Origin: Minisyncoccia bacterium
GTDB taxonomy: Bacteria; Patescibacteriota; Minisyncoccia; Phycocordibacterales; PALSA-1337
DNA: 64,000 nt
Reading direction: 5' to 3'
Assembly (NCBI GenBank): GCA_044228445.1
Contig: JBGAUV010000002.1
Span: 19,219 to 83,218 of the forward strand
The translations under genes were made by a program, and so were the position numbers. Shown in pieces: positions 10,948-46,482 of the stretch. The number at the start of each line of letters is the position of its first letter. The first letter of the stretch is position 1. Under the pieces are notes generated by a model. That model did no database searches and was not told the origin of the DNA. It was given only the letters and a program-made list of their open reading frames with translations.

Positions 10948-10988
10948 TTTATTTGCTAAATATTAACTTTTTTGTTATAGTCTCGTGT

Positions 10989-11276
10989 ATGAAAAAAGAT
11001 ATACATCCAAAGGAATACAGACCTGTAATATTCGTCGATAACTCAAACGGCGAGAAATTTTTAATACCTTCTACAATAAAGACAAAAACAACAGAAAAAT
11101 GGACAGATGGAAAAGAATATCCAGCTTATCACGTTGAAATTTCAAGTTCATCACACCCATTCTATACAAACCAAGAGAAGACTCTAGACAGTGCAGGTCG
11201 TGTAGAAAAATTCAAAGCTCGCCAAGCAAAAGCTTCAGCTAGCACTTCAGCAAAGACTTCAAAAAAGAAGGCTTAA
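10989..11276 (+). CDS. rpmE: 50S ribosomal protein L31 (type B, non-zinc form)
   Basis: The sequence reads [15 protein letters not shown]...[18 protein letters not shown]. The stop overlaps the prfA start (TAATG). Confidence 0.85.
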
Positions 11277-13024: not shown

Positions 13025-13609
13025 ATGATTACAACTGAACAAATAAAGGATTTAAGAGATCAAACTGGAGTTTCTATTATGCAATGTAAAAAAGCTCTAG
13101 AAGAAGCAGGAGGAAGTATAGAAAAAGCTCTAGTTATTTTACGTAAAAAGAGTGGTGATATGGCTTCAAAGAAAGCTGATAGAACTTTTGGAGCAGGAAC
13201 AGTACAAGCATATATACACTCAACAGGTAATGTTGGTTCAGTTGTTGTTCTGATGTGCGAAACTGATTTTGTTTCAGGAAATGAAGGATTCAAAAGTTTA
13301 GCTCGTGATATAGCTATGCATATTACTGCTTCAAATCCAAAATTTTTAAAGAAAGAAGATATTACAGAAGAAGCGAGAAATATTGCTAAAGAAGTATTTA
13401 TAAAAGAAGTAGAGGGTAAACCAAAAGAAATGCAAGATAAGATTCTTGAAGGAAAGTTAAATACATATTTTGCTGAAATGGTTTTGCTTGATCAACCATT
13501 TATTAAGAATCCAGAACTAAGCATTCAAGCACTTATTGATTCAGCCATGCAAAAATTTGGAGAAAAGATTGCTATTGCAAAATTCTCTAGATTTGGTTTG
13601 TTCGAATAA
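13025..13609 (+). CDS. tsf: translation elongation factor Ts
   Basis: The EF-Ts UBA-like N-terminus is present (TTEQIKDLRDQTGVSIMQCKKALEEAGGSIEKA), along with the core GSVVVLMCETDFV. Confidence 0.9.
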   Translation: MITTEQIKDLRDQTGVSIMQCKKALEEAGGSIEKALVILRKKSGDMASKKADRTFGAGTVQAYIHSTGNVGSVVVLMCETDFVSGNEGFKSLARDIAMHITASNPKFLKKEDITEEARNIAKEVFIKEVEGKPKEMQDKILEGKLNTYFAEMVLLDQPFIKNPELSIQALIDSAMQKFGEKIAIAKFSRFGLFE

Positions 13610-13614
13610 AATTA

Positions 13615-14033
13615 TGATACTAGCATTTACTTCATTTACCATATCATTGTTTGTCATAATTGGTATGCTAACAATGAAGGCTCATGAAATAAAGAGTCAA
13701 AATATAAATTTTATTTCAAAGATGATTCAAAAATCAGATAAGTTTTTTTCTGTACTTTTTAGTGATATAAGAAAGTTAGTGTCATATATAAACCGTCATA
13801 CTTTTATCACTATTGTAGAGTGGTTAGCTTATCTGGTATTATCTAAAGCTAGAAAGTTATATATATGGGCATATAATAAAGCACATGAGCACCCACACTC
13901 AAAGAGAGTTATTGATATGGTTCGTGGCAAGGGTGATATAAGTAAAGCAGGAGGTGCGTCCTTTTATTTAAAAAGGATTTCTGATAATGTATATCCTGTG
14001 GAAAGTACAAATCCTTCTTTCATAAAGAAATAA
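13615..14033 (+). CDS. hypothetical membrane protein
   Basis: The N-terminal transmembrane segment MILAFTSFTISLFVIIGMLT is present. The start was chosen at 13615 to avoid overlap with tsf. No recognisable domain was found. Confidence 0.35.
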
Positions 14034-14051
14034 GGTAAAATAATAGTATAC

Positions 14052-14127
14052 GCCACCTTAGCTCAGTTGGTAGAGCAACGCTTTTGTAAAGCGAAGGTCC
14101 CCAGTTCAAATCTGGGAGGTGGCTCCA
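14052..14127 (+). tRNA. tRNA-Thr (anticodon UGU), CCA encoded
   Basis: A cloverleaf was drawn by hand. The acceptor pairs are GCCACCU/AGGUGGC. The D arm is GCUC/GAGC, and the anticodon loop UUUGUAA gives anticodon UGU at positions 34-36. The T arm is CCCAG-UUCAAAU-CUGGG. The discriminator U is followed by CCA. Confidence 0.85.
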
Positions 14128-14158
14128 AAAAAATCTCATAATCTGCTATAGTGTAGCA

Positions 14159-14887
14159 ATGAAAGAACAAGACAAAGGCCACCTACATCCAATTACACAA
14201 TTTACTCGTGAAGTTGTGGGTATTTTTGCTGATATGGGTTTCGTTGTAGCGACAGGTCCAGAACTAGAAAAAGAGCACTATAACTTCGATGCTTTAAATA
14301 TTGCAAAAGATCATCCTTCAAGAGATATGCAGGATACATTTTGGATAAAGTCTAAAGATAAAGAAAATGTAAATGATAAACTCGGTAGACCAGTAATGCG
14401 TACTCAAACATCTGCAGTCCAAGCTAGATTCCTAGAAAAAAATAAAGACAATCTTCCTTGCGCTATTATCGTTCCAGGAAAGGTTTTTCGTAATGAAGCG
14501 ACAGATGCAACACATGAGGTACAATTCTTTCAACTAGAGGCATTATATGTCGATAAAAACGTAAGTATGGGTCATTTGAAGGGTACAGTAGAGCACTTTT
14601 TAAAGAAACTTTATGGAAATGATGTTGTAATACGTTTTAGACCAAGTTTTTTTCCTTTCGTTGAACCTGGAGTAGAGGTTGATATGTTATTTAATGGTAA
14701 ATGGTTAGAAATGGGTGGTGCAGGTATGGTTCACCCGAATGTTTTGCGTGAGGCAGGAATTGATTCTGAAATTTGGAAAGGTTTTGCTTTTGGTTTCGGT
14801 GTAGATAGACTAGTTATGAGACAAAATAATATTCCAGATGTAAGAATGATATATGATGGTGATTTAAGATTTATAAATCAATTTTAA
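14159..14887 (+). CDS. pheS: phenylalanine--tRNA ligase alpha subunit (catalytic core, short form)
   Basis: Class II aaRS motifs are present: RTQTSAVQAR, FRNEATDATHEVQFFQLE, GAGMVHPNVL, GFAFGFGVDRL. Confidence 0.9.
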   Translation: MKEQDKGHLHPITQFTREVVGIFADMGFVVATGPELEKEHYNFDALNIAKDHPSRDMQDTFWIKSKDKENVNDKLGRPVMRTQTSAVQARFLEKNKDNLPCAIIVPGKVFRNEATDATHEVQFFQLEALYVDKNVSMGHLKGTVEHFLKKLYGNDVVIRFRPSFFPFVEPGVEVDMLFNGKWLEMGGAGMVHPNVLREAGIDSEIWKGFAFGFGVDRLVMRQNNIPDVRMIYDGDLRFINQF

Positions 14888-27090: not shown

Positions 27091-27441
27091 ATGGATACAG
27101 GAGTTGTCTGGATTGAGAATATTGCTTGTTACGGACCAACAATCAATATTGGTTTCAGAAGTGATTTGCAGTTTCTACCAGGTGGTTCACTGATTTTTCT
27201 TGAGAAAAAAGATATCGCTAAGATAGTTGATCATCATACTAGCTCAAACAGCGATGTGTCTGGTGCCTTTGAAATGGTGTACAATAGACTGAATCCAAGA
27301 ATTTTCAATGATCAACTTGAATTTGTAGAATTCGTTTGGCAGAAAATGGGGAACAGTATCGGTCATGATTGGCACCCCAGTGCTTTAAATGAATTTGTTA
27401 TGTACAAAGGATTCTTGATTCGGGTGTGGTATGTAAGATAA
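27091..27441 (+). CDS. hypothetical protein (orphan, GC-richer than neighbours)
   Basis: The 116-aa ORF has no recognisable motif. It is followed by a hairpin plus T-run terminator at about 27455-27497. Confidence 0.35.
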   Translation: MDTGVVWIENIACYGPTINIGFRSDLQFLPGGSLIFLEKKDIAKIVDHHTSSNSDVSGAFEMVYNRLNPRIFNDQLEFVEFVWQKMGNSIGHDWHPSALNEFVMYKGFLIRVWYVR

Positions 27442-37459: not shown

Positions 37460-37816
37460 ATGTATAGCAACGAAGAGATAATTAATAATGCCAAATCTTT
37501 TTATTTAAAAATAGGAAGTATACCTTGTTCTGCCTTAGGAAATATGAATATTGTATTTGGCAGTGTTGGATGGAGGCATATTTTATGGAAAAACAGATTA
37601 CCAAGAAATACCAGTGATAAATTAAGGAGAATAAAGTTATTGAAATACGCTCCGGTTGTAGTCAATAAAGGGTGTTTAATTTTTTATAGACAGGATTACA
37701 AAAATGGTATTTTAGGTAAATTTTGGAAGTTAAAAATGAAAATAAATAATAAAGAAGTAAAAGTTGTAATCAGACAGATTGGCGGTGGCGATATAAATTT
37801 TTTTAGCATTATGTAA
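37460..37816 (+). CDS. hypothetical protein (orphan island gene)
   Basis: This 118-aa basic protein has no recognisable motif. It lies in a 1.2-kb non-housekeeping gap between smc and rnr. Confidence 0.35.
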   Translation: MYSNEEIINNAKSFYLKIGSIPCSALGNMNIVFGSVGWRHILWKNRLPRNTSDKLRRIKLLKYAPVVVNKGCLIFYRQDYKNGILGKFWKLKMKINNKEVKVVIRQIGGGDINFFSIM

Positions 37817-38385: not shown

Positions 38386-40323
38386 TTACCCCACAATTCC
38401 AAAATCTAGTGTTTTTCTATCTAGATCTGCACCTGTTACTTTAAACTTTATATCATCACCAAGAGTAAACTTTTTCTTTGTCCTTTGACCAGTTATGGAA
38501 TAAGTCTTTTTATTAAATTCATAAAAATCATTTCCAAGATCACGAATCTTTATCATACCTTCACACTTTGTTTCTTTTTCTTCAACATAAACACCCCATT
38601 CAGTTACACCAGATATAGTACCAAGGAATTCTTGACCAATTTTATCTGCCATGTATTCAACTTGTTTTAGCTTCTTTGACGCTCTTTCAGCTTCTGCTGC
38701 ATCTATTTCGCGAGCTGTGGATGATTCTGCTATGTTTTGGAATTCTATTATCTCACGGTCTTTAAAAGGCTCATGATGTAAATGCTTTGCAAGTATTCTA
38801 TGTACTAAAAGATCAGGATAACGACGAATAGGGGAAGTAAAATGTGTATAGTATTCGAAAGCTAGACCAAAATGTCCAATATTCTTTGTTGAATATATAG
38901 CTTTTTGCATAGAACGAATTGCTGCGGTTTTTATAAGTGTTTCATGAGGTGTACCTTCAACTTGTTTCAAAAGATTTTTTATACTATGCGCATTTACATG
39001 ACCTTTTTTAGTATTCAAATCATAACCAAGTGCTTTTACGAATTGCTCTAGTTCAAGCATTTTTTCTGGGTCCGGAATATCGTGAATTCTGTAAATTGAT
39101 CCAGTATCTTTTGTGCCTTTCTTTTTTATTGAATCATAAATATGTCTTGCAACTTCACGATTTGCAAGTAGCATGTATTCTTCAACTAGTTTATGGGTAT
39201 CTAGTCTTTCTTTTTTATATACTCCAATAGGCTTACCATTTTCATCAAGCTTAAACTTTATTTCATCTTGCTCAAATTCTATAGCACCTTTATTAAATTT
39301 TTCTTTTTGAAGTATTTTTGCAATTCTATTTAGAGTAATTAATTCATTTGCATAAGGACCATTTTTATTATCTATACTTTCTTGAGCAGTTTCATAAGTA
39401 AAACGATAATCAGAGTGCATTACAGTTCTTCCAAACCAACGATCTTTTATTTGAGCTTTTTCATTCATTATGAAAATTGCTGAAAAAGTCAGTTTGTCTT
39501 CATTTGGGTTTAGACTACAAAGGTCATTTGAAAGTATTTCTGGAAGCATGGGTATAGTTCTATCTACTAGGTAAATAGAGCAACCGCGTTTGCGAGCTTC
39601 TTTATCAAGTGGTTGGCCTTCGCGTACATAGTGACTTACATCAGCAATATGTACTCCTATTTCATATAGTTTTTCTCCATCTTTTTCTCCCAATTCTTTA
39701 TATGAAATTGCATCATCAAAATCTTTTGCATCAAAAGGATCTATTGTAAATGTTAGTGTGTCGCGAATATCACGACGCTTTTGTATTTCTTGTTGTGGAA
39801 TTTTTCCTTCTTTTCTTGATATTTCTTCAGCTTCATCTTCTACGGCATGAGGGAATTTTGTTTCAAAACCACTTTCAAGAACAATAGCTTCCATTTCTAC
39901 ATTATTATTTCCTTTTTTACCTATTACTTTTACTATATCTCCATAAAGTCTTTCTTTTGGGTTTGTCCATGTATTTATCTTTACAAAGACACGATCACCT
40001 GGTTGAACTTTTTTTGTTTCTGTGGGAGAAAGCATAATATTTGCATACATTTTTCTTTCATCTGGAACTATACCTAGTATACCTTCACGCTCTTCTACAG
40101 TACCTACAAAATGATCCCTATATCTTTCCAAGACTTTTGTAACTCTAGCACTTTTATTTTCTCCGCTTTTCACTAGTATTTCTACTTCAACTGTATCTTG
40201 ATTTAAAGCACAGTTTAAATTGCCTTCTTCTATGAAAAAGTCATTTTCTAAATCATTCGGATCTGGTATAAAACCAAGGCCTTTTCTTGTAGTTGTAACT
40301 GTTCCTGTTATCCTATTATTCAT
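38386..40323 (-). CDS. rnr: ribonuclease R / exoribonuclease II family (RNB domain plus C-terminal S1)
   Basis: N-terminal OB/cold-shock domains are followed by the RNB catalytic region (HIADVSHYV, DRTIPMLPE, SNDLCSLNP) and a C-terminal S1 domain. Confidence 0.9.
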   Translation of the reverse strand: MNNRITGTVTTTRKGLGFIPDPNDLENDFFIEEGNLNCALNQDTVEVEILVKSGENKSARVTKVLERYRDHFVGTVEEREGILGIVPDERKMYANIMLSPTETKKVQPGDRVFVKINTWTNPKERLYGDIVKVIGKKGNNNVEMEAIVLESGFETKFPHAVEDEAEEISRKEGKIPQQEIQKRRDIRDTLTFTIDPFDAKDFDDAISYKELGEKDGEKLYEIGVHIADVSHYVREGQPLDKEARKRGCSIYLVDRTIPMLPEILSNDLCSLNPNEDKLTFSAIFIMNEKAQIKDRWFGRTVMHSDYRFTYETAQESIDNKNGPYANELITLNRIAKILQKEKFNKGAIEFEQDEIKFKLDENGKPIGVYKKERLDTHKLVEEYMLLANREVARHIYDSIKKKGTKDTGSIYRIHDIPDPEKMLELEQFVKALGYDLNTKKGHVNAHSIKNLLKQVEGTPHETLIKTAAIRSMQKAIYSTKNIGHFGLAFEYYTHFTSPIRRYPDLLVHRILAKHLHHEPFKDREIIEFQNIAESSTAREIDAAEAERASKKLKQVEYMADKIGQEFLGTISGVTEWGVYVEEKETKCEGMIKIRDLGNDFYEFNKKTYSITGQRTKKKFTLGDDIKFKVTGADLDRKTLDFGIVG

Positions 40324-40388: not shown

Positions 40389-40760
40389 ATGTTAATGATA
40401 AGACTTCAAAGAGTAGGACGCGTACACGAGCCAACATTCAGGCTTGTTTTAACCGATTCAAAAAATGGCCCAAAGAGCGGAAAGTATATTGAAGTACTAG
40501 GCTCATATGATCCAAGAAGAGAAAATAAGCTAGAACAATTTGATACAGAAAAGATAAAGTATTGGATAAGTAAAGGAGCAAAGCTTTCAGATACAGTTCA
40601 TAACTATCTAGTATCAAAGAAACTAATTGCTGGAAAAAAGATAAATGCTCTTCCAAAAAAGAGACCTATAGTTAAAGAAAAAACAGAAGAAGAAAAGAAA
40701 GCTGAAGCCGCAAAAGCAGAAGCAGAAAAACTAGCACAATCAACTCCGGCCACAGCTTAG
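40389..40760 (+). CDS. rpsP: 30S ribosomal protein S16 with Ala/Lys/Glu-rich C-terminal tail
   Basis: The sequence begins MIRLQRVGRVHEPTFRLVLTDSKNGPKSGKYIEVLGSYDP. Confidence 0.85.
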   Translation: MLMIRLQRVGRVHEPTFRLVLTDSKNGPKSGKYIEVLGSYDPRRENKLEQFDTEKIKYWISKGAKLSDTVHNYLVSKKLIAGKKINALPKKRPIVKEKTEEEKKAEAAKAEAEKLAQSTPATA

Positions 40761-40804: not shown

Positions 40805-40833
40805 TTGACCACTTTCCTGATTGAAAGTAAAAT
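40805..40833 (+). promoter_or_regulatory. sigma-70-like promoter (TTGACC, 17 nt, TAAAAT) upstream of the KH-domain gene
   Basis: ttgacc lies at 40805-40810 and taaaat at 40828-40833. Confidence 0.4.
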
Positions 40834-40887: not shown

Positions 40888-41199
40888 ATGAATAATGATC
40901 AACAGTTTTTGGAATATGTAGTTAAAGCTCTAGTTGAAAATCCAAATGAAGTAAAAATAACTAGAACAGTAGATGAAATGGGAGTTCTTATGACTTTGGA
41001 AGTAGGGGCAGCTGATATGGGAAAGGTGATTGGAAGATCTGGAAATACTGCAAAGGCCATTAGAACACTATTACGTGTTGTTGGAATGAAAAATAACTCT
41101 AGAGTTAATTTGAAGATTAATGAACCAGAGGGAAGTGTAAGACCAAGTGAAAAAGCTTCAAAGACAGTAGATGAAGCAATGGCAGATCTAAAGATATAA
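40888..41199 (+). CDS. KH-domain RNA-binding protein (KhpA/YlqC-like, UPF0109)
   Basis: The KH fold carries GKVIGRSGNTAKAIRTLL (a GxxG loop). The gene holds the conserved position after rpsP. Confidence 0.75.
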   Translation: MNNDQQFLEYVVKALVENPNEVKITRTVDEMGVLMTLEVGAADMGKVIGRSGNTAKAIRTLLRVVGMKNNSRVNLKINEPEGSVRPSEKASKTVDEAMADLKI

Positions 41200-41208
41200 A
41201 GATAAGAA

Positions 41209-41240
41209 AAACAAAAAATACCGAAAGGTATTTTTTGTTT
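41209..41240 (+). terminator. intrinsic terminator
   Basis: The sequence is aaaaaataccgaaaggtattttttgtttt. Confidence 0.6.
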
Positions 41241-41286
41241 TATATAACAATAGTGTTACAATAGGTTTTTAGAAAGGGAAAGTACC

Positions 41287-41613
41287 ATGAAAACAAAAAC
41301 AGTAGTGGTTACAATGTGTTTACCTTTAAATCTAGAGCAAGAAAGGAGGGGTAGTATATTTACTAAGAGATTTGATATTGAACCCGATTCAGAATTTTTT
41401 GATAGGATTTCTATTGGACAAATCGTATCTTTAGGAGGAAGGTGGTGTACTATAGAAAGAGAGAATTATGGAATATTCTATGCAATCACTTTTTTAAATA
41501 AAAGGGAAGTGGAAGATGATAAAATAGATAAACTAGTTGAACAAGGTTGGGTAGTTCATACTGAAAGTCCTAGACAGTATGAATATACAAGAGATTTTTC
41601 GGTAACACATTAA
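41287..41613 (+). CDS. hypothetical protein (orphan gene inserted in rpsP-khpA-trmD cluster)
   Basis: The 108-aa ORF has its own terminator (CAAACCCC...GGGGTTTG, 41617-41652). Confidence 0.4.
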   Translation: MKTKTVVVTMCLPLNLEQERRGSIFTKRFDIEPDSEFFDRISIGQIVSLGGRWCTIERENYGIFYAITFLNKREVEDDKIDKLVEQGWVVHTESPRQYEYTRDFSVTH

Positions 41614-41723
41614 CCCAACAAACCCCGGTAGTTTCTATTGGGGTTTGTGTATTTACTAATTTAAGTTAAAGGTGTATTGTTTTTCTTAAAAAGCACATAA
41701 AATTCAAAAAGAGAAAGGGAGGT

Positions 41724-42032
41724 ATGAAGGTTACATTCAAGATGTCGGTATATAGACTGAAGGATGATAATGGTGATGAAATTCGTGGGAACAAAACTCC
41801 ATTAATGATTGGGGAATATTTCGATGATATCAATTCTTCAGATTATCAGGTAGGTCAAAATATGGCCCTTCTACGTAATTGTTGGATAATTACAGGTTTT
41901 GATAAGAAGAATCTCGTCGTTACTTTGGAAAAGAATGTTAGTGACGGATATGGTTTACATTGCCTTAAAACTGATTTCGGATTCCTTGTAGATGAAACTC
42001 AGGCAACTGGAGTATTTTCCAGCCTGAAATGA
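41724..42032 (+). CDS. hypothetical protein (orphan gene inserted in rpsP-khpA-trmD cluster)
   Basis: The 102-aa ORF has its own terminator (CCGTGGT-acaatgtg-ACCACGG plus T7, 42063-42095), which abuts the trmD start. Confidence 0.4.
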   Translation: MKVTFKMSVYRLKDDNGDEIRGNKTPLMIGEYFDDINSSDYQVGQNMALLRNCWIITGFDKKNLVVTLEKNVSDGYGLHCLKTDFGFLVDETQATGVFSSLK

Positions 42033-42093
42033 GAAATCGAAATGATTTACAACTCAAAAAATCCGTGGTACAATGTGACCACGGTATTTTTTT

Positions 42094-42744
42094 ATGACAT
42101 TTCATATAATTTCACTTTTCCCAGACTCTTTTACCTCATATTTAAATGAGTCTATTTTAAAGCGTGCAATAAATAATAAAAAGATAAAGGTTAAATTCTA
42201 TAACCCAAGGGATTTTAGTAATGTAGAAAGAGCAAGGGTAGATGATAAACCTTATGGTGGTGGTCCAGGTATGGTTATTCAGGCTTTACCAGTTATAAAA
42301 GCTATAGAAAAAGCTATCGGTAAAAAGAGTACAAAAAAGAAGATTAAAATAGTCTGGCTAACACCTAGTGGTAAACAATTTGATACAAAGTATGCAAAAG
42401 ATATAGCAAATAAATATACAGATATAATAATTATTTGTGGTAGATATGAAGGCATAGATGCGCGTGTAAAAAAAGTATATAAAGTTGAAGAGATTTCAGT
42501 TGGTCCTTTTGTATTAACAGGTGGAGAACTACCCGCAATGATAATGATTGATTGTATAGGAAGACAAGTCGAAGGAGTTTTGGGAGATTTTAATTCTTTA
42601 GAAGAAAATAGAATAGCTTCAAGTGATGTTTATACAAGACCTGAAATTATAGTGTATAAAGGTAAAAAGATAAGAGTTCCAAAAATACTTCTTTCAGGTG
42701 ATCATAAAAAGATAGAGGAGTGGAGACAAAATAGAGATAAATAA
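42094..42744 (+). CDS. trmD: tRNA (guanine37-N1)-methyltransferase
   Basis: The sequence reads MTFHIISLFPDSF...RVDDKPYGGGPGMV and carries the SPOUT knot motifs. Confidence 0.9.
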   Translation: MTFHIISLFPDSFTSYLNESILKRAINNKKIKVKFYNPRDFSNVERARVDDKPYGGGPGMVIQALPVIKAIEKAIGKKSTKKKIKIVWLTPSGKQFDTKYAKDIANKYTDIIIICGRYEGIDARVKKVYKVEEISVGPFVLTGGELPAMIMIDCIGRQVEGVLGDFNSLEENRIASSDVYTRPEIIVYKGKKIRVPKILLSGDHKKIEEWRQNRDK

Positions 42745-42752
42745 ATTTATAT

Positions 42753-43169
42753 TTGAATTTAATCAATACATGTAGTAATGTTTCCTTCAGACAACTTAGG
42801 AGGGAATATATGGGTGATTCAATTACCGACTTTATCGATTCATTGTATGGGGAATCCACATTTAGTTTTACATTCATGAATATACCATTCTGTGGAGACA
42901 TCTGTGATATGTGGTATTACCCAAGACATGAAAAGGGTCAGAAGAAACTGGTAATTCAGTTAAGCACACTACGGATGCTAATTCTTTACGGAACAAATGA
43001 GAGATGTCGACCAAGATTCAGGTACGTTTTGATACTTAATGGATCGCATATTGAGACAAGAGGTAGAGAATTGATAATATCTCTAAATACAAGAATTCAA
43101 GAAAATGGTCACATGATAGGACCAATAGTATCAATTAGGAAGTTGGATGATACTATATACACAACATAA
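42753..43169 (+). CDS. hypothetical protein (orphan gene; occupies position where rplS usually follows trmD)
   Basis: The ORF is 138 aa, or about 119 aa from the internal ATG at 42811. It is GC-richer than its neighbours. Confidence 0.4.
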   Translation: MNLINTCSNVSFRQLRREYMGDSITDFIDSLYGESTFSFTFMNIPFCGDICDMWYYPRHEKGQKKLVIQLSTLRMLILYGTNERCRPRFRYVLILNGSHIETRGRELIISLNTRIQENGHMIGPIVSIRKLDDTIYTT

Positions 43170-43202
43170 CCCCGACGAAATAAGTCGGGGTTGGTTTTTA
43201 TA
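43170..43202 (+). terminator. intrinsic terminator
   Basis: The sequence is aaCCCCGACgaaataaGTCGGGGttggttttta. Confidence 0.6.
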
Positions 43203-43260
43203 ACTTATCCCCTTGACTTTTAAATGGGGTTTTGATAGGCTCAGGAGAACTTCAATCTGA

Positions 43261-46200
43261 TTGAGTTACTCCTTATTTGAAGGATTAATTGGCTTAACAT
43301 TATCCTTTTTCATGCAAAAGACAAAAAAGTATTTTAGTCGTTTCAAACAACCTTTAACGACTATACCTAACCTTGTTGAATCACAAATAAATTCATTCAA
43401 CTGGCTAATAGAAAATGGTATAGGAGAAGTACTAAAAGAGTTTTCACCAATAAGAGACTATGCTGGTAAGAAGTTTGAACTATCTTTTACAAATTTCAAA
43501 CTTACAAAGCCAAAGTTTGACGAACATTATGCAAAAGTAAATAAACTTTCATATGAAGGTCAAATAGAAGTAACTGTTAAATTAAAGAATAAAACAATAG
43601 GAGAAGAGAAAGAGCAGGAGATTTTCCTTGCTGATTTTCCAATGATGACAGATCACGGTACTTTCATTATAAACGGTATTGAAAGAGTAATATCACCACA
43701 ACTAGCGCGTTCATTCGGTATTTTCTTTACAGTAAATGATGTTAAAGGAAAGAATTATTTCGGAGCAAAGGTAATACCAGCTCGTGGGGTGTGGATGGAA
43801 ATAGAAACAGATACAGATGGTACTGTTTATGCTCGTATAGATAGAAAGAGAAAGTTTCCAATTACTTCTCTAATGAGAATACTTGGTGCAGATACAAATG
43901 AAAAAATCCTTGAACTATTTAAAAATGATGAAAAAGCTAAAAAAGTAATTGAACTTACACTTGCAAAGGATCATGCAAAGAATACTGATGATGCATATAT
44001 AGAAATACATAAGAGACTTCGTGATGGAGATCCAGCTACAGCTGATAATGCTCGTGAATTTATTGGAGGTATATTTAATGCTGATAGATACGATATTTCA
44101 AGAGTAGGACGTTTCCGTTTCAATAAGCGTTTCGGAAAGTCTATGGATGAAAAGGAAATGGAAAGAAAGACAGTAGATGTAAATGATATTGCTACAATAA
44201 TATCTCATATAACTACTCTAAATAATACTCCAGATGCAGTAGAAGATGATATTGATCACCTTGGTTCAAGACGTGTTAGATATGTTGGTGAACTTCTACA
44301 ACAAAAACTACGTTTAGGGGTTACACAAATGAAGAGAAATATTCAGGATAAAATGTCTACAGTTGAACCTGATGTTACTTTACCTGTTACATTTATTTAC
44401 CCTCGTCCTCTTCAAGCTCGTATAAAAGAATTTTATACTACAAACCAGTTATCACAGTTTATGCAACAAGAAAATGTTCTAACAGAAATAGAACATCTTC
44501 GTACTCTTACAGCTCTAGGTCCTGGAGGTCTAACTCGTGAAAGAGCAGGCTTTGAAGTTCGTGACGTACACCCATCACACTACGGTCGTCTATGTCCTAT
44601 ACATACACCAGAAGGTCCAAACATTGGTCTTGTGCTACGTCTATCTACTTTTGCAAGAATAAATGATTTTGGAATGATTGAAACTCCATATGCAAAAGTA
44701 AAGAATGGAAAAGTAACTGATGAAATTGTTTATTTGAATGCTCTAGAAGAAGAGAATTATAGAATTGCACACGCCGCAACACCTTATGATACAAATGGAA
44801 AAATATCTGTAGATGAAGTGGAAGTTCGTATAAATGGTAAACCAGGACTTTCAAAGAAAGAAGAAGTTGACTATATAGACGTATCTACAAATCAAGCTTT
44901 CTCTATTGCTACATCACTTATTCCTTTCCTAAACCACGACGATGCAAACCGTGCACTCATGGGATCAAACATGCAAAAGCAAGCTACACCTTGTCTTATA
45001 CCAGAAGCACCTCTAGTTGCTACAGGAATTGAAAAGAAATCTGTAATTGATACAGGAAGAATTGTATTGGCACCAGAAGATGGAGAAATTACTTATGTAG
45101 ATTCAAGAAAAGTAGTTTTGAATGATAAAAAAGGTAAAAAACATGAATATAACCTTGTTCATTATTCAAGAACAAATGGTTTCACTGCTTTCCATCAAAG
45201 ACCTATTATTTCTCTTGGAGATAAAGTAAAGAAGGGTGATGTTCTAGTAGATACATCAACTTCAGATGGTGGAGAAATTGCTCTAGGACAAAACATGCTA
45301 GTTGCTTTCATGTCTTGGTCAGGAAATAACTATGAAGACGCTATTATTCTTTCAGAAAGAGTAGTAAAGGATAGTAAGTGGAGTTCAATACACATAGAAG
45401 AATTCGTTGTAAATGTTCGTGATACAAAACTAGGTCCAGAAGTTACAACTTGTGATATTCCAAACGTTGGTGAAGCAAAACTAAAAAATCTAGCAGAAGA
45501 TGGAGTGATTCGTGTTGGAGCAGAAGTACGTTCAGGAGATATCTTGGTTGGAAAAATCTCTCCAAAAGGCGAAACACAACTTACACCTGAAGAAAGACTA
45601 CTTAGATCAATATTCGGAGAAAAAGCTCGTGATGTAAAAGATACATCAAAGAGAATGGAAGGAGGAAAGAAAGGACGTGTTATATCAGTAAAAATATTCT
45701 CAAGAGATAAAGGAGATAAACTAGAATCAGGAATTATAAAGAAAATATATATTGAAGTTGCTCAAGTAAGAAATGTTTCTGTGGGAGACAAGCTTGCTGG
45801 TCGTCACGGTAACAAAGGAGTTATTTCAAAGATTTTACCAGAAGAAGATATGCCATGTATGGAAGATGGTCGTCCTATCGATGTTATTCTTACACCACTT
45901 GGAGTTCCAAGCCGTATGAACCTTGGACAGATACTAGAACTTCACCTTGGTCTTGCTGCAAATACTCTGGGTTATCAAGCTATAGTTCCACCATTTGCAG
46001 GAGCTACAGATATTGAAATAAAAGAAGAATTAAAGAAAGCTGGTTTTGCTGAAAACGGAAAAATGAAACTACGTGATGGTAGAACAGGAGAATACTTTGA
46101 TCAACCAATTGCAGTTGGATACATGTATATATTGAAACTTCATCACATGGTGGAAGATAAGATACACATGCGTTCTATCGGACCTTACTCACTTATTACT

Positions 46201-46482
46201 CAACAGCCACTTGGAGGAAAAGCTCAAGGAGGAGGACAGAGATTTGGAGAAATGGAAGTCTGGGCACTACTTGGTCACGGAGCTGCTTATACTCTACGTG
46301 AAATATTGACTATAAAGTCAGACGATATACAAGGACGTTCACAGGCATTCGATTCTATAGTTAAGGGTGAAAGATTGAAGCAACCAAACCTTCCTGCATC
46401 ATTCAATGTTCTTTTGAAATCACTTCGTGGATTGGCACTAGATGTCGAACTAGTTAAGAAAGATGGTGAAGAGATTGAATAA
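43261..46482 (+). CDS. rpoB: DNA-directed RNA polymerase subunit beta
   Basis: Conserved rpoB regions run throughout (RF..ERV, GPGGLTRERAGFEVRDVH, NMQKQA, GRHGNKGV...). The start is ambiguous between TTG at 43261 and ATG at 43312. Confidence 0.9.
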   Translation: MSYSLFEGLIGLTLSFFMQKTKKYFSRFKQPLTTIPNLVESQINSFNWLIENGIGEVLKEFSPIRDYAGKKFELSFTNFKLTKPKFDEHYAKVNKLSYEGQIEVTVKLKNKTIGEEKEQEIFLADFPMMTDHGTFIINGIERVISPQLARSFGIFFTVNDVKGKNYFGAKVIPARGVWMEIETDTDGTVYARIDRKRKFPITSLMRILGADTNEKILELFKNDEKAKKVIELTLAKDHAKNTDDAYIEIHKRLRDGDPATADNAREFIGGIFNADRYDISRVGRFRFNKRFGKSMDEKEMERKTVDVNDIATIISHITTLNNTPDAVEDDIDHLGSRRVRYVGELLQQKLRLGVTQMKRNIQDKMSTVEPDVTLPVTFIYPRPLQARIKEFYTTNQLSQFMQQENVLTEIEHLRTLTALGPGGLTRERAGFEVRDVHPSHYGRLCPIHTPEGPNIGLVLRLSTFARINDFGMIETPYAKVKNGKVTDEIVYLNALEEENYRIAHAATPYDTNGKISVDEVEVRINGKPGLSKKEEVDYIDVSTNQAFSIATSLIPFLNHDDANRALMGSNMQKQATPCLIPEAPLVATGIEKKSVIDTGRIVLAPEDGEITYVDSRKVVLNDKKGKKHEYNLVHYSRTNGFTAFHQRPIISLGDKVKKGDVLVDTSTSDGGEIALGQNMLVAFMSWSGNNYEDAIILSERVVKDSKWSSIHIEEFVVNVRDTKLGPEVTTCDIPNVGEAKLKNLAEDGVIRVGAEVRSGDILVGKISPKGETQLTPEERLLRSIFGEKARDVKDTSKRMEGGKKGRVISVKIFSRDKGDKLESGIIKKIYIEVAQVRNVSVGDKLAGRHGNKGVISKILPEEDMPCMEDGRPIDVILTPLGVPSRMNLGQILELHLGLAANTLGYQAIVPPFAGATDIEIKEELKKAGFAENGKMKLRDGRTGEYFDQPIAVGYMYILKLHHMVEDKIHMRSIGPYSLITQQPLGGKAQGGGQRFGEMEVWALLGHGAAYTLREILTIKSDDIQGRSQAFDSIVKGERLKQPNLPASFNVLLKSLRGLALDVELVKKDGEEIE

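Follow-up and report, generated by a model that had tools for sequence, protein, structure and literature searches.

Three small genes beside trmD in a Minisyncoccia bacterium: probable clade-restricted accessory genes in two variable chromosomal slots

In Escherichia coli, the trmD operon carries rpsP-rimM-trmD-rplS, and the corresponding cluster of Bacillus subtilis has the order rpsP-ylqC(khpA)-ylqD-rimM-trmD-rplS. This work addresses the trmD locus in a 64-kb stretch of DNA (64,000 nucleotides, hereafter the window) from a Minisyncoccia bacterium (Patescibacteriota; GCA_044228445.1, contig JBGAUV010000002.1, positions 19,219 to 83,218), in which rpsP, a gene encoding a KH-domain protein and trmD keep the order and the strand that they have in both model clusters. 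However, neither rimM nor rplS is found near trmD, as the original prediction made from this sequence had stated, and rpoB comes after trmD. Furthermore, hairpin terminators part khpA, orfA, orfB/trmD and orfC/rpoB, whereas the model clusters form one polycistronic operon. The three small genes named here orfA, orfB and orfC lie, as predicted, on both sides of trmD, two of them between khpA and trmD and the third between trmD and rpoB. The altered layout is common to 80 related Patescibacteria. The locus is therefore discussed below as a probably ordinary Paceibacteria locus, in which the three small genes would be clade-restricted, fast-evolving accessory genes housed in two variable slots beside trmD.

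The loss of the ribosome-biogenesis factors RimM, RimP and RsfS has been described for the candidate phyla radiation (CPR)/Patescibacteria, and RimM is reported missing from most CPR bacteria, in passages of two papers (PMC6744442, Meheust et al. 2019; PMC12641178, Mol Biol Evol 2025). The absence of rimM from this locus agrees with the lineage-wide absence given in these passages, which record gene presence or absence and in which variable khpA|trmD and trmD|rpoB slots with small genes were not seen described. Unlike RimM, bL19 is reported present in CPR (PMC9297842); therefore, rplS is probably encoded elsewhere.

The synteny of the locus was compared with that of the closest 80 genomes by TrmD, retrieved from a scan of GTDB species representatives. 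Open reading frames (ORFs) were called in each related locus and labelled by phmmer, using as seeds the window proteins and the L19 and RimM sequences of E. coli and B. subtilis. All 80 loci belong to Patescibacteria (labels Paceibacterota, Nomurabacteria, Taylorbacteria and similar) and their TrmD are 47–85% identical to that of the window. Several relatives labelled 'Candidatus Saccharibacteria' group with Paceibacteria-type loci, and those labels look unreliable. The label S16 was assigned to 64 ORFs (rpsP being present in 64 related loci), KhpA to 70, RpoB to 52 and RNase R to 40, with a recurring order RNase R(-), S16, KhpA, TrmD, [variable], RpoB; no RimM or L19 was found within 6 kb of trmD in the 80 relatives. 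The original prediction that the small genes replace housekeeping genes does not hold, since these relatives share an ancestral khpA-trmD-(variable)-rpoB order without rimM or rplS near trmD. Related loci and literature agree on this absence, so that the loss of rimM would have long preceded the arrival of the small genes.

Both junctions flanking trmD vary extensively in the relatives. KhpA is encoded upstream of TrmD in 66 of them, with a gap of at most 160 nucleotides and no intervening gene in 42 and a gap of more than 450 nucleotides in 16, while RpoB is found downstream of TrmD within the fetched DNA in 50, the trmD-rpoB gap ranging from 102 to 4462 nucleotides (median 1085). Clustering of all non-core ORFs of at least 70 residues from both gaps of all loci distributed 244 ORFs among 211 similarity clusters, including 188 singletons. 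The khpA-trmD gap harbours NUDIX hydrolases, cytidine deaminase or unknown proteins, none of them RimM-like, and the trmD-rpoB gap harbours PspC-domain, YecM, NYN and PsbP-like proteins and a DHH hydrolase matching a PADLOC defence-associated model. Far from being the normally invariant locus that had been assumed, the khpA|trmD and trmD|rpoB junctions, as judged from these gene orders, can be regarded as lineage-wide hot spots of gene turnover. The frequent lack of any gene between khpA and trmD and the unrelated cargo found in other genomes therefore point to insertion of the small genes into variable slots and not to substitution.

Chromosomal hot spots of gene turnover between core genes occur in other bacteria. 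The slots described here resemble these general hot spots or 'defence islands' by their fixed core flanks and unrelated cargo, and by the nature of this cargo, which includes nucleases (NYN), NUDIX proteins, a deaminase and the PADLOC-matching DHH hydrolase. However, they are tiny (0–4.5 kb) and have no integrase, tRNA or repeat boundary, and in two of the resident families divergence seems to proceed on the spot, between conserved promoter and Shine-Dalgarno flanks, instead of by exchange of mobile units.

The first gene of the khpA|trmD slot, orfA (41287–41613, + strand), encodes an acidic protein of 108 residues (isoelectric point, pI, 5.4). Its only homologues among 5.8 billion clusters are P0001–P0003, which are identical, 88% and 76% copies and all directly adjoin khpA; orfA can thus be considered as an insertion found only in the closest relatives. 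In the locus L088, the place of orfA, after khpA and before a family-B gene (see below), is taken by an unrelated ORF of 214 residues (336–980), so turnover would affect that sub-slot too. OrfA has no Pfam, NCBIfam or PADLOC match and no useful PHROG match. Its AlphaFold2 (AF2) model is of low confidence and too poor to test the fold (predicted local distance difference test, pLDDT, 49.5; predicted template modelling score, pTM, 0.37), and this model gave no Foldseek match in PDB at E≤0.001, including no RimM. The best PDB sequence match of the orfA profile is the anti-CRISPR AcrIIA13 (7ENI chain C); both proteins are small and 66 columns align, but the match is not significant (E=0.069, domain independent E-value 2.1) and no membership is claimed.

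The second gene, orfB (41724–42032, + strand; 102 residues, pI 5.2), matches nothing besides itself in a word-indexed protein search and has no Pfam, NCBIfam or PADLOC match and no useful PHROG match. Exactly at its position, the related loci L001, L004 and L084 carry genes for mutually conserved proteins of 146–148 residues, called here family B. OrfB and family B can be aligned collinearly along some 90 residues: the Smith-Waterman z is 5.0, the score being reached in one of 500 shuffles, and hhalign aligns 92 columns at E=0.0054. When the family-B hidden Markov model (HMM) was run on every ORF of the window and of the fetched loci, orfB was the best match outside the family. The conserved C-terminal FIPLTxLSDTPE tail of family B is missing from orfB, which is probably, with moderate confidence, a shortened and strongly diverged allele of this family. 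In L002, which shares 95% DNA identity with the window over 2.4 kb, the sequence diverges around codon 5 of the gene found in the orfB slot. A by-eye resemblance between orfA and orfB ('EQGWVV', 'FGFLVD'), which could have indicated paralogy, was rejected (BLASTP E=0.28, Smith-Waterman z=-0.1, hhalign E=0.25), and pairwise comparisons detected no relationship among the three small proteins.

The gene of the trmD|rpoB slot, orfC (42810–43169, + strand), encodes 119 residues from an ATG located behind AGGAGGG (pI 7.7), or 138 residues from an upstream TTG at 42753. An exhaustive HMMER search of 1.84 billion representative proteins retrieved only P0006 (42% identity) and P0007 (37%) as true homologues. 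P0006 is encoded in the trmD-rpoB gap of L084, whereas L001 carries two orfC paralogues in this gap, P0007 and a more distant copy (BLASTP E=5e-20 and 2e-08), giving a family C of about four members among these representatives. On this distribution, orfC would be a member of a small clade-restricted family of the trmD|rpoB slot. Its proposed likeness to a repeat unit of giant surface proteins (P0008–P0010) was discarded, the scores being short matches to unrelated proteins summed over identical tandem repeats. OrfC has no Pfam, NCBIfam or PADLOC match, no useful PHROG match and no PDB sequence match at E≤10, and its AF2 model (pLDDT 36) is also of low confidence and too poor to test the fold. 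Beside the orfC paralogues, the slot of L001 carries an ORF of 286 residues (13523–14383) matching the PADLOC models C3a116 (E=1.6e-37) and DHH_CorA, a DHH-family hydrolase of candidate defence clusters. HMMs of families A (orfA and its copies), B and C detected no further members among all ORFs of the window and related loci. The orphan status first attributed to the three genes is thus correct in that none belongs to a detectable known family, but close relatives carry homologues of orfA and orfC, and probably of orfB too.

The ratio of nonsynonymous to synonymous substitutions (dN/dS, Nei-Gojobori method) is 0.30–0.34 for orfA, 0.31–0.34 for family B and 0.32 for orfC compared with L084, versus 0.025–0.057 for KhpA (0.025 with L001), 0.09 for S16 and 0.13 for TrmD. 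By this measure, the evolution of the small genes is 3- to 10-fold faster than that of the genes around them and, judging from these ratios, orfA, orfB and orfC behave as real genes under purifying selection; the value obtained for orfB itself compared with L001 is 0.67, in a saturated comparison.

The DNA divergence between the window and L001 is sharply partitioned. Identity is 83–92% across the core genes, but homology halts at 41710, just before the orfB Shine-Dalgarno site, and restarts at 42045, after the orfB stop codon; it halts again exactly at the orfC ATG (42809) and restarts at 43205, upstream of rpoB. The coding DNA of orfB and orfC has diverged beyond recognition whereas the flanks carrying promoter and Shine-Dalgarno sequences can still be aligned. 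Therefore, turnover would be much quicker in the coding cassettes than in the regulatory flanks. The GC content at third codon positions (GC3) of orfB (0.31) and orfC (0.32) is the second and third highest of the 51 genes of the window (mean 0.18, standard deviation 0.05), while that of orfA is typical (0.18). Together with the Shine-Dalgarno sites described below, these values would suit either a foreign origin or membership of a separate expression class.

Terminator-like hairpins were found at 6 sites in the scan versus 1.2 ± 1.2 in shuffled sequences. A perfect 15-bp palindromic hairpin with an A-run and a T-run follows khpA (41208–41241; -16.6 kcal/mol, z=-8.2). Downstream, orfA is preceded by an extended -10-like box TGTTACAAT (41254–41262, + strand), 24 nucleotides 5' of its start and followed by the purine-rich AGAAAGGGAAAG, and is followed by a 14-bp hairpin (41618–41648, + strand; -20.1 kcal/mol, z=-4.0); box and hairpin are both kept in L001, L002 and L003. 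On the same strand, orfB has a TAAAAT -10-like box (41698–41703) and a GGGAGG Shine-Dalgarno site (41717–41722), and a TAAAAT...AAGGAGG layout is also found upstream of the family-B genes of L001, L004 and L084. For orfC, an AGGAGG Shine-Dalgarno site (42798–42803, + strand), 6 nucleotides before the ATG, is kept in every family-C gene, and a hairpin follows the gene (43167–43193, + strand; -18.8 kcal/mol, z=-4.5).

The segment that serves as the orfB terminator (42056–42093, + strand; hairpin 42063–42084, z=-3.5) consists of an A-run, a CCGTGGT/ACCACGG stem and a T-run, finishes right before the trmD ATG and carries an extended -10-like box TGGTACAAT; trmD has no Shine-Dalgarno site. The same architecture occurs in at least 10 relatives (L001, L004, L084, L006, L007, L008, L009, L013, L022 and L031), in which the stem sequence varies while the extended -10-like motif TGGTAnAnT is conserved in the 5' arm and loop. 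The terminator of the upstream gene and the trmD promoter thus appear to overlap, leaving trmD with a predicted leader of about 12 nucleotides. The scan and the fold z-scores bear out the earlier proposal that each small gene has its own terminator. As for the promoter proposed for khpA, a TTGACC-17-TAAAAT motif does exist at 40805–40833, but the promoter is unproven because promoter-like matches are no commoner in the region than in shuffled sequences (15 versus 14.1).

All members of families A, B and C have a purine-rich or GGAGG Shine-Dalgarno site 4–7 nucleotides before the start codon, and most of these genes have a -10-like box about 20–25 nucleotides upstream of it. In contrast, a Shine-Dalgarno-like motif precedes only about 5 of the 51 long ORFs of the window. 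A near-consensus TATAAT ends 3–11 nucleotides before the start codon in 14 of the 51 ORFs, with a peak at 6 nucleotides. The closeness of TATAAT to start codons and the rarity of Shine-Dalgarno motifs therefore suggest leaderless transcripts, and more broadly a widespread leaderless or Shine-Dalgarno-independent initiation in the genes of the window. In a published survey, the anti-Shine-Dalgarno motif is missing in about half of Parcubacteria.

Altogether, the locus would have the usual layout of Paceibacteria (Patescibacteria/CPR), i.e. RNase R(-) | rpsP - khpA - trmD - rpoB - rpoC, in a lineage that has no rimM at this place and in which rplS is presumably unlinked to trmD. In this genome, the two slots would hold three small, soluble, non-basic proteins, namely an insertion of the closest relatives (orfA), a shortened allele of family B, to which the khpA|trmD slot belongs in this sub-clade (orfB), and a member of a family with two paralogues in L001 (orfC). 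Each gene would be a self-contained unit, in which a -10-like box and a short leader with its Shine-Dalgarno site of GGAGG type precede the ORF and a hairpin terminator closes it.

Several points weigh against this interpretation. Judged by absolute scores, orfB is weakly linked to family B (BLASTP E=12, HMM E=0.17), and position provides the main added weight. L002 is a low-coverage contig of 2.5 kb, whose divergent end could be an assembly artefact. The RimM and L19 seeds were E. coli and B. subtilis sequences, used without a CPR positive control, and the rplS gene of this genome was not located in a search that covered the 64-kb window of the 245-kb contig. Lastly, the small proteins offer no clue to function in Pfam, NCBIfam, PHROG, PADLOC or PDB sequence searches, nor in the two AF2 models.

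Gene anatomy, synteny, homologies and selection estimates are shown by the analysis. What the products do can only be proposed tentatively, the best guess, with a confidence that is low to moderate, being accessory proteins that vary between strains and act in conflict or host interaction (in the manner of immunity or anti-defence factors) and not in ribosome biogenesis. It is more doubtful that the junctions flanking trmD are dedicated 'cassette' sites, where small proteins, translated from Shine-Dalgarno sites that few other genes of the window possess, diversify in place between conserved promoter and Shine-Dalgarno flanks; families A, B and C would then be immunity-like or anti-defence-like factors of conflict or host interaction that co-evolve rapidly in an episymbiotic Patescibacterium. 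A less likely variant of this last proposal would make them ribosome-associated proteins compensating for the lost biogenesis factors.

Another origin to be considered is a recent arrival of mobile or phage-derived cargo, perhaps anti-defence-like, from a Shine-Dalgarno-using organism or virus. The high GC3 of orfB and orfC, the GGAGG sites that are scarce among the other genes of the window, the variable presence of the genes among close relatives and the weak, non-significant likeness of orfA to AcrIIA13 would all fit such an origin. However, tblastn with the small genes gave nothing in 50,697 phage genomes, IMG/VR contained no relative of them, the sole PHROG match reaches only E=0.016, and PADLOC gave none for orfA, orfB and orfC. 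Moreover, no integrase or transposase and no meaningful direct or inverted repeats were found around them, the GC3 of orfA is typical, and the persistence of the same chromosomal slot and of conserved regulatory flanks in relatives looks like vertical descent with rapid divergence. Recent mobile cargo is therefore considered unlikely.

It is less likely still that one or more of the three, orfB above all, is a non-functional ORF, either arisen by chance or left over from a decaying gene. Such decay would account for a protein of 102 residues instead of 146–148, devoid of the FIPLTxLSDTPE tail, for its high though saturated dN/dS and for the lack of any other orfB-like sequence in the word-indexed search. 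On the other hand, the orfB ORF is intact, with a strong GGGAGG site and a -10-like box in front of it and a terminator of its own behind, it aligns with family B collinearly over almost its full length, and orfA and orfC are clearly under purifying selection, with conserved homologues.

The search for RimM and L19 themselves bears on the last alternative. Neither was found anywhere in the window by tblastn with the E. coli and B. subtilis sequences or by Pfam scans of the other small ORFs, and the basic small ORFs located downstream of trmD in relatives have no likeness to L19. At E≤1, orfA, orfB and orfC have no Pfam or NCBIfam match, RimM (N-terminal domain PF01782 and C-terminal PRC-barrel) included, and neither do the family-B proteins of L001, L004 and L084. 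Profile searches of PDB sequences, which presumably include solved RimM chains, retrieved neither RimM (none at E≤10) nor L19 for the small proteins. A RimM-like gene would be expected to be conserved before trmD, whereas this gap is short in 42 of the 66 relatives and contains unrelated genes in the others. As for bL19, orfC has no PF01245 match, a pI of 7.7 and a family of only about four members. By sequence methods, none of the three can thus be recognised as a divergent RimM or L19, whose detection would, on its own terms, have refuted the original prediction. A non-orthologous displacement, in which orfA/orfB would stand in for RimM and orfC for L19, is extremely improbable: although orfA, orfB and family B sit exactly where other bacteria have rimM, and orfC where they have rplS, although the absence of RimM from the lineage makes a substitute conceivable and although the AF2 models, however poor, are rich in beta-strands like RimM barrels, the hypothesis is already largely refuted by synteny (empty gaps, or unrelated genes such as NUDIX and deaminase genes) and is also opposed by families limited to a handful of genomes, by acidic or neutral pI and dN/dS of about 0.3 that are unlike those of ribosomal proteins, by the retention of bL19 in CPR and by the lack of RimM or L19 matches in Pfam and PDB profile searches.

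The ORF map of the window gives the order RNase R(-), rpsP, khpA, orfA, orfB, trmD, orfC, rpoB, with RNase R at 38386–40323 (minus strand) and all others on the plus strand. The left-hand core gene, rpsP (40389–40760), encodes ribosomal protein S16 (PF00886 Ribosomal_S16, E=9.9e-17). The gene that borders the first variable slot, khpA (40888–41199), encodes a small single-domain protein adjoining rpsP that scores above the gathering cut-off of PF13083 KH_KhpA-B (E=6e-20; 71.4 bits versus 32.1) and under those of the NCBIfam equivalog models, so that 'KhpA-like' is the safe name. Between the two slots, trmD (42094–42744) encodes the tRNA (m1G37) methyltransferase, as identified by the NCBIfam equivalog NF000648 (229.8 bits versus a cut-off of 220), TIGR00088 (220.4 versus 195) and PF01746 (E=5e-40). 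Finally, rpoB (43261–46482) closes the second slot. Elsewhere in the window, ribosomal protein L31 is encoded at 10953–11276 from a TTG start (PF01197, E=1e-23), with EF-Ts nearby (13025–13609), and an Rfam scan for RNA genes identified a single tRNA (14052–14124). Two other small ORFs without Pfam match, 27091–27441 (+; 116 residues, GC3 0.34, the highest of the window) and 37460–37816 (+; 118 residues, GC3 0.26), may be additional lineage-specific genes.

A displacement of core translation genes would have been the import of the earlier interpretation, but this is not the case: the lack of rimM is a published CPR-wide trait and the layout is standard for the class. What remains are three tiny, previously unnamed protein families. 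The significance of these small genes is modest because CPR genomes very commonly contain small proteins that are lineage-specific and uncharacterised. Nevertheless, the locus clearly illustrates how two very small, hypervariable slots can lie between the essential genes of a reduced genome. Its accessory genes have Shine-Dalgarno sites, in contrast to the core genes, most of which are devoid of them. This contrast could aid the study of translation initiation and of gene birth and turnover in Patescibacteria.

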